64,000 nt of DNA from a virus (taxonomy: Duplodnaviria; Caudoviricetes): the IMG/VR virus record IMGVR_UViG_3300014208_000027, positions 1-64,000 of that record; one strand, given 5' to 3'. This document shows positions 5,460 to 43,555 of the stretch, in pieces (position 1 is the first letter of the stretch; the number at the start of each line of letters is the position of its first letter). Below the pieces are notes generated by a model. That model did no database searches. It was not told the DNA's origin and worked only from the letters and a program-made list of their open reading frames with translations. Made by a program: the position numbers and the translations under genes.

Positions 5460-5524
5460 CTAAGGGTAGGCGAGAAAAAAAGTTTTCCAAACCTGCCTTA
5501 ACAGGCAAGAAAGTGAAATGAAAA

Positions 5525-8776: not shown

Positions 8777-9007
8777 ATGGCACCTAGAGATAAGACAATA
8801 TGTGGATGGCGTAAACCAAGAAATAAAAGACCCTTGACTAACTCTAATATTTCAGATCTTAGAGACTGGCGAGATACATTCGTTCAAGCTGGCGGAATTG
8901 CTCTAGAATCTGGCAATACTTCGCTGGCTATCAAATTGCTTGAAACTGCTAGTGATTTTAGTAGGGGTTTGCTAAGCAAAAAACAATTAGATTATGTTGA
9001 CTCTTAG
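8777..9007 (+). CDS. Hypothetical protein, probably leaderless
   Basis: ATG 6 nt after TATTAT (8766-8771). Confidence 0.55.
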   Translation: MAPRDKTICGWRKPRNKRPLTNSNISDLRDWRDTFVQAGGIALESGNTSLAIKLLETASDFSRGLLSKKQLDYVDS

Positions 9008-9089
9008 GTATTGACTAATTGAATTAACTTTGCTATGATCTAAGGGTAGGCACAAAAAAAACAATCTAACCAATTGAAAGGGTAAAACA

Positions 9090-9290
9090 GTGTCAAACGA
9101 TTACAATCGGTTTCACAATACAGCTATTCTTCTGGAAGAATGTTTTGACTGTATTAATGACGATCTGTCCAATAGCGAAAGTAGGGCTAGGAATAAACTA
9201 ATAAAACTGTGCATGGCCATCACAGAGAATCAGCTTGACTTGGAGAATCAAGAGGAGTATGATTCTGAAGAATTTGATTGTCCTCTCTAG
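9090..9290 (+). CDS. Hypothetical acidic protein
   Basis: GTG start after GAAAGG. Confidence 0.65.
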   Translation: MSNDYNRFHNTAILLEECFDCINDDLSNSESRARNKLIKLCMAITENQLDLENQEEYDSEEFDCPL

Positions 9291-9344
9291 CAAGTTTTCC
9301 TGGTAGGCAACAAAAAACAATCTAACCAATTGAAAGGTATAAAC

Positions 9345-9728
9345 ATGTCAAGTTATATGGTGGGTGATAAGACTTTGAATGTCGTATTGTCAGCCCTAGC
9401 ACAATCGGATGATGATTGCTTTAATCTCGGCTATTCTAGTCGTGATACCCTACTAGAAGCACTCTTCAGAATGAATAGAGACGCTGTAGAGGTAAGGTAT
9501 GGAAAGGAGGTTGACTTCCCGTTGCCTATGTTAATGGACTATATTCAAGAGGCAACAAATAAATATGTAGTGCTAAAATGCCTTGACTGTTACCTCTATC
9601 AATGCTCGGAAGGAGATTGCCCAAAGCTTTCACTATATCAAGAAGTTGAGAAGGCACGAAATAAATTGGTGAATAAGCTAATAGCAGGAGTGCCAGCATA
9701 TCAAGTAGCGCCATGGGGAATTGATTAA
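9345..9728 (+). CDS. Hypothetical protein
   Basis: ATG after GAAAGGT; leader duplicated from 9045-9090. Confidence 0.7.
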   Translation: MSSYMVGDKTLNVVLSALAQSDDDCFNLGYSSRDTLLEALFRMNRDAVEVRYGKEVDFPLPMLMDYIQEATNKYVVLKCLDCYLYQCSEGDCPKLSLYQEVEKARNKLVNKLIAGVPAYQVAPWGID

Positions 9729-10004
9729 CCCTAGCAAGTTTCCCTAGTAGGCAACAAAAAAATAAAGAGTAAAGGATAGAAGCAAGTTACAGATAATATC
9801 CTACCTGTAGCAAACTAACAAGCCAAAGCAATCCTTCCATTAGAGATACCTCAGAAGCCTTTACAGGCAAGAAAAATAATAGCTAAAGAAGGTTAGAGTA
9901 CCAGCAAAACAGGTAAGAACAACTTAGCCAAGGTAGGAAAGCTATAACCCATTTTCCATACCATATTTTACCACTGTTTACCACTTTATACCCTTGACAA
10001 TTTG

Positions 10005-11121
10005 TAACCCATTGAAATTGTTAGGTAGTGTTTTGCTACCCTTCTAGCCCTTCATATCATTTACTTGGCCTCTATCTTGCACTACTAGCATATATCATAC
10101 CAAGTATCATCAGGCTAAAGTTAAATATTTCTTGCTTAGATAAGCATTAACTTATTGACAGTACTATATATTTTATGCATACCTATAATAGATATTGTGA
10201 GATTGTAGGTAGCTTTATCAAAGTACAGGGAATCATTAAGGAAAATTATTTGGGTTAACATGACAGCCCACGTTGGCTTAACATGACACGCTAAGTAATT
10301 GGAATTATTGATGAACTAGAAAGAGTGATACTGGTAAAATTTAATAAAGAATGTCTTGACGGCAATGACTACAGTGTGGATAAGTTACTTCCCCTGATAC
10401 CTTAGCTAGACGTTCTGAAGGTGCTTCAAAGATTATTTTAACTTCACGGTTAGAGTAATAAGTCAAGAAGAATAATAAAGTTTTATTTACTGTATCCTTT
10501 GCATATATCATACCAACTATTTTCTACCCTTAGTTACTTTTTCCTTGTCTTTACTATCCTTTCTATGGTATAATCCTACCTTTTTATATTATTAAAAACT
10601 GTGGAAGCTTATCACACCTTGTTAGTATTGTAAAGATATTTTTTTTATTCCCTATCATTTTTATGGCCTATTACTTGCTAATACATTTTTCATGCCTAGT
10701 CAATCCTATGCACAGTAGCTATCCCTTGTCAAGTATTATTTTAAGTTACCTACCCTTGTTACCCCTTGCAAGTTCTACACCATCTTATTGGCACGTTATA
10801 TGCTTACTAACCTTTCCCCTATTCTTAGCAAGTATCATACCATTGCTAACCCTTTGATATCCTTAATCTATTAGCGACACACGTTATAAGGGTAGGCACA
10901 AATAAAATTCTATGCCATGTATTTACCTTGCATAACCTATGCCTAATAACCTTAACGATTACAAAGGGTTACAAAGGATAGCTAACCTTGAGTCCCTACT
11001 TGTAGCTACCTTACTAACCATAGCGCGGCATGACACTTGCAAAGGGTTGAAGTGTAGGCAAGCTCAAACTTGTGGACTCTGTTTTGACAAGGCTAAATAG
11101 CGTAGGGATATCACGGGGTTA
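10005..11121. repeat. Four copies of 19-bp motif TAACCCNNTGWWATYSYTA
   Basis: (+)10005-10023,10847-10865; (-)10953-10971,11103-11121. Confidence 0.75.
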
Positions 11122-11166
11122 CCGTAATGTAGGTAGGGGTGGGATACGGGGTGGCACGGAGGTTGC
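10066..11166. promoter_or_regulatory. Array of ten sigma54-like -24/-12 sites (GG-N10-GC)
   Basis: (+)10066,10664,10789,11026,11152; (-)10088,10501,10768,10828,10930; best site TGGCACGGAGGTTGC. Confidence 0.7.
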
Positions 11167-11390
11167 CTTAATAGGCTTTCATTACGGGTATAATTTTTAC
11201 AGTTTTGAAATGTCTTAATGCGTCATAACTATTTTACAGTTCGCTAGTATTCTCTACCCTTTTCCACTCCTTCTCCTAATAGGCTTTAAATTTTCTTTAC
11301 TATACGTATCCCTTAAAAATCCGGAGAAAAAATTTTCTAGAGTTTTAATTTGTGGCTAATACTCTAGCTTCTTTGGTCGCTATTACTCTA

Positions 11391-11603
11391 TCACATTCTA
11401 TCAAAGAAATTATCTCTAATCCTATCCTTATTATAAGCCGTATAAAATGTTTCATTCTCTTTTAAGTCTAGAATTTTTAAACTATTATTCCTTTTATCTT
11501 TTACTAATATTAAAAACAGTCCAATATGATTTCTACAATCAATATATTGAATTATATCTCCCACCGCCCAAGTCTTCAATTCAGTATCTTCAAAGTCTAG
11601 CAT
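11391..11603 (-). CDS. Small SH3/KOW-like protein
   Basis: WAVGDIIQY motif; start moved to MLDFED. Confidence 0.6.
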   Translation of the reverse strand: MLDFEDTELKTWAVGDIIQYIDCRNHIGLFLILVKDKRNNSLKILDLKENETFYTAYNKDRIRDNFFDRM

Positions 11604-11619
11604 ATCTGTTACCCTTGGC

Positions 11620-12471
11620 CTAGCCTTCAAACATTTTTAATTGTTTACTATCCGTTAAGGATTGTTTACTATCGGTAGAACCATCAGGATCTTCTACTTT
11701 ACTTTTCCCGTCGTATCCTTTACCTTTTGTAAAATTTGCTATTTTATTACAGAATCTGATAAACTCTCTGCGACTAAAATCACGTTTTAAAAAATTACAA
11801 AACTTACAACACGGGGAACAATTATCTATTTCATATCCTCTAGAATTGTTTATTCTATCGATACCAGTAAATTTTAATTCTTTATTGGACCATCCTCCAC
11901 AATAGGAACATGGCTTACTTGTCAACTCTTCAAATTGTTCAAAAAGCAATGGGATCATGTTTCTTGCTATTGTATTTCTTTCATATTTTTTATATCTTTT
12001 GTTTACAGTTTTGTTCTCAATTTTAACTTTTTTTTTATTAAGGCACTTTTTACATTGGCTACGATAGCCATCATAGGTAACAACATCTCTTCCAAAAAAG
12101 CAATATCTTCTTTCTTTTTTACAACAGCCACATTTTTTAGTTCCAAGTGGTTCGTTTGATAATGAAATTAAATTTTTTTCTTTATTATTTTTTTTTGACT
12201 TCATTACCGCCAGATTTTTACACTGTTTACAAGCTGAGGATATTCCAGCCTTCATCGATTTATCTACCCCAAACTCTTCTACCCCCTTTACTTCTTTACA
12301 CTTGCTACACACCTTAGTTTTTCTTTCTTCCCTACCGTGAAGTATATCTTCAGATCGTTGCATTGCGTTAGTCTTGACCGAAAGGTTAAGTGCATAATCA
12401 TAGGTTTCTTTTCTTTGTTCCTCCGTTAAATCTTTTAATGGTTGGTATGGATCATAATCTTCCTCTTTCAT
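11620..12471 (-). CDS. HNH-type endonuclease-like protein with two CxxC..CxxC zinc ribbons
   Basis: CSYCGG..GIDRINNSRGYEIDNCSPCCKFCN. Confidence 0.75.
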   Translation of the reverse strand: MKEEDYDPYQPLKDLTEEQRKETYDYALNLSVKTNAMQRSEDILHGREERKTKVCSKCKEVKGVEEFGVDKSMKAGISSACKQCKNLAVMKSKKNNKEKNLISLSNEPLGTKKCGCCKKERRYCFFGRDVVTYDGYRSQCKKCLNKKKVKIENKTVNKRYKKYERNTIARNMIPLLFEQFEELTSKPCSYCGGWSNKELKFTGIDRINNSRGYEIDNCSPCCKFCNFLKRDFSRREFIRFCNKIANFTKGKGYDGKSKVEDPDGSTDSKQSLTDSKQLKMFEG

Positions 12472-43109: not shown

Positions 43110-43555
43110 CAAATTTTAATTTAAAACCTCTGAGGTCTTCTTAGTCTTTTCTCTATCTTACTAAATTATATAACTTTTTTACTCTTTTTTTGTTAAGGTA
43201 AAAACTTTTATCTTATTTTTTTCTACCTTGCAATATATTTTTGGAACAGTTCTTGCATATTAACTATGAATCTTTAAAGATTACTATTATCACCAAAAAC
43301 TCACAAGTTAGATAACTTTTAAACTTTTCTTTAACCAATCTTATAGTTACAAACTTTTTTCTTTTACTTTTATAATTGGTGAACTTTTCTTTTTAACTTT
43401 TTTCTACTTGATCAGGTTAAATTAGTAGATTTCCTAATGAGAACTGTTATAGTAGTTAATCTTTTAACCGTTGTTAAGTACCGTCTGAAGTAAAACTACT
43501 TGTTTTAACTGAAGACCAATAGAGAGAATTTATCACACGATTTTCATCAAGTCAA
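43110..43555. other. AT-rich non-coding tract, candidate replication origin
   Basis: Seven AACTTTT copies, 14-bp palindrome 43269-43282, leftward promoter 43527-43555. Confidence 0.4.

Follow-up and report, generated by a model that had tools for sequence, protein, structure and literature searches.

What use could a phage have for a cluster of sites of the kind recognised by sigma-54 RNA polymerase in a region that holds no genes for them to drive? The question is raised by positions 10066-11166 of the first 64,000 nucleotides (hereafter the window; GC content ca. 33%) of the virus record IMGVR_UViG_3300014208_000027 of IMG/VR, a 203,498-bp virus from groundwater that is rated complete. A sequence-only reading of the window had pointed there to ten 15-mers with the GG-N10-GC geometry of the -24/-12 sites of sigma-54 (RpoN), and all ten were found letter for letter, on the strands and at the coordinates collected in the table below. 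Sigma-54 holoenzyme forms a stable closed complex on a -24/-12 site and does not start transcription unless an ATPase activator is present. The account that we favour, as a tentative one that falls somewhat short of probable, is that the ten boxes, judged from their letters, would be docking sites for the sigma-54 polymerase of the host, acting by binding, be it as a sink, as a parking place or as an occluder.

The density of the cluster is far above that of the rest of the genome. The pattern GG[CT][AC]N6[TA]TGC is found 27 times in the 203,498 bp, and nine of these occurrences lie in this 1.1 kb, which represents 0.55% of the length and for which 0.15 would be expected; the pattern TGG[CT]A-N7-TGC is found 16 times, five of them in the gap between open reading frames (ORFs) that contains the array. 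When sites were scored as matches out of the 12 consensus positions, with GG and GC fixed and the other eight scored, four of the 11 sites of the genome with at least 10/12 and eight of the 45 with at least 9/12 fell in this region. The spacing between the half-sites is distinctive as well, since ten GGY...WTGC pairs in the gap are separated by N10, versus none to two at each other spacing from 3 to 30, and the genome outside the gap has no spacing preference (57 such pairs at N10 versus an average of ca. 45). Dinucleotide shuffling of the gap, repeated 2000 times, rendered a mean of 0.36 sites and a maximum of 4, versus the 10 observed. A scan against shuffled controls, as had been proposed together with the sequence-only reading, therefore shows the sites to be enriched 40- to 100-fold, whether the genome or the shuffles serve as reference. 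A chance origin of the cluster was considered and is ruled out by the spacing control and the shuffles.

The sigma-54 consensus is also followed at positions that had played no part in picking the sites: T precedes GG in eight of the ten boxes, a pyrimidine follows it in all ten and A comes next in seven, T precedes GC in 10/10 and W follows it in 9/10. The scores range from 8 to 11, with a mean of ca. 9.5/12, and the departures from the consensus have counterparts elsewhere, as the variant half-sites TGGTATG, TGGCCT, TGGTG, AGGCAT, CGGCAT and ATGC are each present among Escherichia coli sites bound in ChIP-seq (PMC4591121). Paired variants are found there too, TGGTATGA...ATGCA being similar to the ndh site, TGGCCTC...TTGCA to serS, TGGTG...CTTGCA to emrE and AGGCAT...TATGCA to glgA, with CGGCA forms also represented. 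The flanks of the ten boxes share a mean identity of 26% (maximum 45%) and are thus unrelated, which indicates that the ten sites are independent and that no repeat unit was copied. In so far as sequence alone can show it, then, the boxes are sigma-54 (RpoN) -24/-12-type sites, and the original reading stands to the extent that it saw such sites without genes, on the grounds of geometry, consensus, statistics and lack of ORFs; that sigma-54 is the protein that reads them, and what its binding would achieve, is what we infer.

It could be argued that the motif is read by some other DNA-binding protein of the phage or of its host, the array being an origin, a partition-like or packaging-related site, or a nucleoprotein scaffold. 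Most of the small proteins of the phage are without known function, which leaves room for such a reader; further words are enriched in the gap (CTACCCTT/AAGGGTAG, with five occurrences versus 13 elsewhere), which also contains a direct repeat with copies 23 bp apart. From 10664 to 11152 the boxes start at intervals of ca. 100 bp (96-126 bp), save for the close trio 10768/10789/10828, and the cumulative GC skew peaks at the gap. We nevertheless consider this reading improbable, because the agreement with the sigma-54 consensus covers nine unselected positions and the exact spacing. Neither does the locus look like an origin: DnaA boxes or iterons that would mark one were sought, and a single DnaA box (10375-10383) was met, which is below chance for the window; the ten boxes differ in orientation and in their flanks; and genes converge on the gap, an arrangement unsuited to an origin. 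As for packaging, that of the T4 type is generally known to need no pac site.

The gap that harbours the boxes is the junction of two converging gene blocks. On its left the early-gene block of the plus strand, with genes running rightward up to 9728, ends with an ORF at 9330-9728; on its right a block of the minus strand, with genes running leftward from a position at ca. 35.1 kb down to 11391, ends with a 79-aa ORF at 11391-11630. The claim that the sites have no genes to drive was borne out, as no ORF of more than 64 aa lies in 9729-11390, and no frame of at least 20 aa with a Shine-Dalgarno-like site was found downstream of any box, with the exception of one doubtful 33-aa GTG frame. The six small frames of the gap gave no PHROG match, and no defined RNA was recognised downstream of the boxes by a match to an Rfam family. 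In the gap as a whole no Rfam family was found either at the gathering threshold or at E<=1, no tRNA was found, and a blastn search against GenBank phages gave no match. Pieces of the gap are present in a second groundwater study, identical and without differences, although no piece spans the whole of it. At least 9776-10806 is therefore not an assembly artefact, and there is no variation to read in these pieces.

Table. Features of the gene-free gap and of its right flank. Scores are matches out of 12 consensus positions; counterparts are sites to which sigma-54 was bound in E. coli ChIP-seq (PMC4591121).
Feature	Position	Strand	Remarks
Largest non-coding gap of the genome	9729..11390		1662 bp; from ORF lists and a genome-wide gap list
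Early-region intergenic module copy, 94%	9731..9761	+	original at 9287-9317; no ORF behind
Box TGGCCTCTATCTTGC	10066..10080	+	9/12; faces 10088(-), 7 bp between; bound counterpart CTGGCCTCGACTTTGCA (serS)
Box TGGTATGATATATGC	10088..10102	-	9/12; also extended -10 TGgTATGAT; bound counterpart TTGGTATGACCAATGCA (ndh)
Extended -10 element TGnTAT(G/A)AT	10094..10102	-
Two direct copies TTGG(G/C)TTAACATGACA, 23 bp apart	10250..10288	+	family D14; AT-rich mid-gap
Box TGGTATGATATATGC	10501..10515	-	9/12; same letters as 10088(-); also extended -10 element
Extended -10 element TGnTAT(G/A)AT	10507..10515	-
Extended -10 element TGnTAT(G/A)AT, TGGTATAAT	10566..10574	+	TTGTCT 18 nt upstream (fair -35); directed rightward
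Box TGGCCTATTACTTGC	10664..10678	+	9/12; bound counterpart CTGGCCTTCGAATTGCA (carB)
Box TGGTGTAGAACTTGC	10768..10782	-	8/12, weak; back to back with 10789(+), 6 bp apart; counterpart GTGGTGCAATACTTGCA (emrE)
Box TGGCACGTTATATGC	10789..10803	+	11/12; among the two best boxes
Box TGGTATGATACTTGC	10828..10842	-	10/12; faces 10789(+); also extended -10 element
Extended -10 element TGnTAT(G/A)AT	10834..10842	-
Long imperfect hairpin, ca. 140 nt	10845..10985	-	inverted repeat I1; contains the weakest box, 10930(-)
Leader copy, 95% (AAGGGTAGGCAC and A-run)	10887..10907	+	original follows the early promoter at 9031
Box AGGCATAGGTTATGC	10930..10944	-	8/12, weakest; inside the long hairpin; overlaps an AGGCA word recurrent in early leaders of this phage; counterpart AAGGCATGTTTTATGCA (glgA)
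Box CGGCATGACACTTGC	11026..11040	+	10/12; bound counterparts start CCGGCATG... and ACGGCAC...
Box TGGCACGGAGGTTGC	11152..11166	+	11/12; full TGGCACG-N4-TTGC match; points to the 3' end of the minus-strand block
Cys-rich endonuclease VII/HNH-like protein, 283 aa	11620..12471	-	next to the gap
GIY-YIG domain protein, 90 aa	12662..12934	-	right flank of the gap

Searches of the phage for a sigma-54 DBD or CBD domain, that is, for the RpoN-like gene that the sequence-only reading had proposed to look for, found none, and none was found either for the enhancer-binding (bEBP) AAA+ domains PF00158 and PF14532. A host factor would hence have to read the sites. No upstream activator repeats were recognised near the boxes, and integration host factor (IHF) cores are not enriched in the gap. 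The short distances of 6-7 bp between some of the boxes were also found as described, with 10066(+) and 10088(-) lying face to face and 10768(-) and 10789(+) back to back, and from published closed-complex footprints it can be inferred that two polymerases could hardly use the members of such an opposed pair at the same time. It is because a closed complex needs an activator, the phage lacks one, no genes lie behind the boxes and some of the boxes stand in close opposed pairs that a role through binding, and not through expression, is suggested. In E. coli, sigma-54 holoenzyme is described to bind in a transcriptionally inactive state, many of the bound sites not being conventional promoters (PMC4591121). 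Host sigma-54 holoenzyme, or free sigma-54, would dock on the boxes in the one large gene-free region of the phage. Each replicated phage genome would add ten sites, so that a scarce pool of sigma-54 could be soaked up and the sigma-54 regulons of the host muted; polymerase could, besides, be parked on the DNA of the phage, and boxes that are occupied could occlude the three sigma-70 extended -10 elements that overlap them.

The same evidence for sigma-54 would serve equally well a reading, to our mind rather unlikely, in which the boxes are conditional promoters, fired by an activator of the host that acts from solution or from unrecognised sites and producing non-coding RNAs. The outermost boxes are directed away from the array, 10088(-) and 10501(-) leftward and 11026(+) and 11152(+) rightward, or, put otherwise, the two rightmost boxes are on the plus strand and two of the three leftmost on the minus strand; any RNA from the outermost boxes would therefore be antisense to the ends of both gene blocks, and could act there by interference or by R-loop priming of replication, as in oriF/oriG of T4. 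The presence in the gap of sigma-70-type elements without ORFs and of a strong 140-nt hairpin makes non-coding transcription plausible. On the other hand, no activator gene was found in the phage and, as said, neither activator sites nor an enrichment in IHF cores was recognised near the boxes; polymerases fired from face-to-face boxes 7 bp apart would collide; and no terminator-like site that would bound the transcripts was found in 9000-12000, nor any Rfam match.

The hairpin, on the minus strand, folds far better than shuffled sequences (z of -6.4 for a 120-nt window). For a 166-nt fold, values of -51.7 kcal/mol (z -4.15) were obtained for the minus strand and of -35.6 kcal/mol (z -2.5) for the plus strand. 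No U run follows it, and it matches no Rfam family. Possible roles are those of a 3' stabiliser for the minus-strand block, a small RNA or a cruciform.

Several points weigh against docking as the function of the boxes. One of them concerns the boxes themselves: TGGCACG is present in full in only two of the ten, 10789(+) and 11152(+), and two others, 10768(-) and 10930(-), are weak. Another concerns sigma-70. The TGGTATGAT of boxes 10088(-), 10501(-) and 10828(-) is a perfect extended -10 element, with the hexamer seen in the early promoters of the phage, so that these three boxes may be sigma-70 promoters. Matches to a -35 element are poor for all three. An extended -10 reading of these boxes is compatible with a double reading by sigma-54 and sigma-70, in which case the two polymerases would compete at the three of them. 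The best candidate in the gap for a promoter of the sigma-70 type is a different element, TGGTATAAT at 10566, on the evidence of its letters and those of the -35 in front of it.

A third group of points concerns the host. The phage, a distant T4-like myovirus, has a T4-type major capsid protein, portal and large terminase. Compared by capsid protein, its closest relatives in culture are Flavobacterium phage immuto (47.5%), Microcystis phage Mel-JY01 (47.8%) and Rhodothermus phage RM378. Flavobacterium, the host of one of them, has RpoN, but Microcystis, the host of another, is a cyanobacterium, and cyanobacteria are not known to possess RpoN. The GroEL of the phage, from which a host might have been deduced, had no bacterial relative in our searches, the nearest clusters being viral. 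Docking would presuppose rpoN in the host. A T4-like phage may, moreover, have other ways to switch off transcription in its host, in which case a sink would be redundant. In Salmonella, some phages are less successful once rpoN is lost (PMC8744999), which means that muting sigma-54 is not obviously beneficial to a phage.

The overlap with extended -10 elements also lends itself to a deflationary explanation, which we deem very improbable: that the array is a mixed bag, the TGGTATGAT boxes being sigma-70 promoters of decayed early modules and the rest weak look-alikes in fast-changing junk. Of the 39 copies of the element TGnTAT(G/A)AT in the genome, four lie in the gap, where 0.3 would be expected, three of the four coinciding with sigma-54-like boxes, and early promoters that look confirmed have TATGAT as their -10. 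The gap contains early leader modules in decayed form, and on its right flank lie the genes of the endonuclease VII/HNH-like and GIY-YIG proteins, which are of the homing-endonuclease type and mark a plastic region. Seven boxes without likeness to a -10 would, however, be left unexplained, as would the WTGC at a fixed distance in all ten boxes and the sharp peak at N10, and the shuffles never yielded more than four sites.

Regarding those modules, an early promoter/leader unit composed of a -10 (TATGAT/CATAAT), CT, AAGGGTAGGC and an A-run is found on the plus strand at 5462, 9042 and 10888; at 10888 the unit is neither preceded by a good promoter nor followed by an ORF, and looks decayed. The direct repeat at 10250-10288 may be a protein-binding site. 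In the second-longest gene-free stretch of the genome (43059-44039, 981 bp) there is one sigma-54-like box, TGGAACAGTTCTTGCA, at 43242 (+).

The proposal of a protein coat that protects or anchors incoming DNA, with an array near the termini, found no support, as capsid and terminase are of the T4 type, the 203,498-bp record has no terminal repeats and the junction is an internal one between converging blocks. The start of the contig is accordingly probably arbitrary. Relatives were scanned for clusters of boxes, as had also been suggested, with a set made up of 35 IMG/VR relatives by capsid protein (55-67% identity among those retained, including one complete 185-kb genome) and three from GenBank. 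None of the 38 has a cluster, and conservation is therefore unusable as evidence, a further point that tells against the docking role. The long gap with its array is a lineage-specific gain in a lineage that is thinly sampled, which would also suit a motif read by a private DNA-binding protein. The 283-aa and 132-aa proteins that flank the gap have only distant, non-syntenic matches. DNA polymerase III alpha and the phosphoesterase rendered nothing as queries in viral contigs; the closest relative of the phosphoesterase (73%) lies on a 1.8-kb contig. The exact 16-mer GCATATATCATACCAA gave 14 single matches in viral contigs, none of them with a cluster.

A distant relative (L394), whose phosphoesterase is 38% identical, has the same layout, with a block from RNA ligase to phosphoesterase that converges on small genes. 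Its junction (11929-12126) measures 197 bp and contains no boxes, but a GGAGACC/GGTCTCC hairpin between A and T runs that is an ordinary two-way terminator. This bidirectional terminator occupies in L394 the very position of the gap in our phage, namely the point at which the replication/nucleotide-metabolism block meets the small genes, whereas in our phage the junction extends over 1662 bp, with the box array and no terminator-like site. That the same layout can do with 197 bp and a terminator is what would be expected if the long gap were fast-changing junk. Another distant relative (L393, 1-643) carries near the phosphoesterase block a gene for an anti-Pycsar protein of the Apyc1 type with a metallo-beta-lactamase fold (Pfam PF23023).

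Comparable arrays do exist in other phages. A scan for two perfect TGGCACG-N4-TTGC boxes within 30 nt, carried out on viral contigs and on 596 Gb of bacterial genomes, rendered at least 120 viral contigs versus 108 bacterial stretches; the latter include several short contigs and one stretch with the same sequence as a viral contig. Among the viral matches listed, up to 14 boxes are found per 1.2 kb, 45 of 120 clusters are of mixed orientation, and 56 of the 58 arrays with at least four boxes have unrelated flanks and spacers, only two being tandem repeats. By comparison, five of the 13 bacterial arrays with at least four boxes are plain tandem repeats, including one of 16 boxes in Paenibacillus and an actinobacterial one, in whose genomes no sigma-54 DNA-binding domain was found. 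Flank identity is 0.26 for the array studied here, with a median of 0.33 for the viral class, and 0.62-0.89 for the bacterial tandem repeats. The extreme case, in the first 8 kb of Paenibacillus wenxiniae scaffold 1 (L297), consists of 16 perfect boxes in 355 bp, in a tandem repeat with a flank identity of 0.89; as no sigma-54 domain was found to go with it, pairs of boxes alone are no proof of sigma-54 function.

The viral arrays lie in long non-coding gaps. From crude ORF calls, 13 of 28 typed arrays are located between diverging genes, four between converging and 11 between co-directional ones, and ca. 41% of the boxes in these 28 arrays have no co-oriented neighbouring ORF. For the 13 that lie between diverging genes a role as promoters is possible, which speaks for conditional promoters in the present case too. 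Five large records that bear arrays have no capsid protein in common with this phage, and a perfect motif that recurs in unrelated phages is not explained by a private phage protein. With ten boxes in 1.1 kb of the longest gap, and with boxes that are kept and flanks that are not, the array studied here shares two traits with this class. It differs in being looser and spread over 1.1 kb, in belonging to a T4-like 203-kb phage and in standing at a converging junction, whereas the arrays of the class found in our own scans contain paired perfect boxes and are most often located between diverging genes. Its place is thus that of a looser case within a feature that recurs among phages and has been acquired convergently.

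The statement in the sequence-only reading that no named system corresponds to such an array agrees with our searches of the literature, as no paper that describes sigma-54 sites arrayed in the genome of a phage was found in a partial literature library. Arrays of this kind are undescribed in the papers searched, and the present one, with its degenerate boxes, is without comparators. Loci that titrate a protein by means of DNA sites are, on the other hand, familiar from datA of E. coli (for DnaA) and from the incA iterons of P1 (for RepA). With these the array would share a cluster of binding sites whose proposed role is to hold a scarce protein and not to express a gene; they regulate, however, the replication initiator of the element itself, whereas here the target would be a transcription factor of the host.

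For the use of host sigma-54 by a phage there is a precedent in Pseudomonas phage YuA, reported to depend on it (Ceyssens et al. 2008, as cited in PMC5053324 and PMC10914365) and to have, according to PMC10914365, a sigma-54-like promoter region that is active by mapping of transcription start sites, an observation that speaks for conditional promoters. As far as those sources describe it, YuA resembles our phage in having no sigma-54 of its own, in the use of a host factor and in a sigma-54-like promoter region on its DNA; it differs in that the promoter precedes phage genes and in being a siphovirus of known host, whereas here ten boxes are found and no gene. Sigma-54 sites of E. coli (Bonocora et al. 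2015, PMC4591121) are similar to the boxes in their GG-N10-GC geometry and their TGGCAYG-N4-WTGCW sequence, and many of them drive no obvious gene, but they are single and scattered round the chromosome, whereas the ten putative sites described here are packed, on both strands, in 1.1 kb of a virus that has no activator gene.

Among the sigma factors of bacteria, sigma-54 alone rests on DNA without firing, and it is therefore well suited to capture by a decoy, while the takeover of host transcription by phages is known mostly to operate via proteins, such as AsiA, Gp2 and P7. With nothing behind them, the boxes of the phage described here cannot be ordinary promoters, and this makes the question that all arrays of the class raise more pointed. 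It is possible, although we lean towards thinking it unlikely, that many unrelated phages, including this T4-like jumbo one, carry DNA arrays to capture the sigma-54 polymerase of the host, as a means of silencing or commandeering an entire regulon that would be free of protein and amplified by replication. If docking on these boxes is what takes place, the regulon of the host that would be affected comprises, e.g., stress responses, flagella, pili and nitrogen control, and a device that consists of DNA only and is directed against sigma-54 would be new as a principle.

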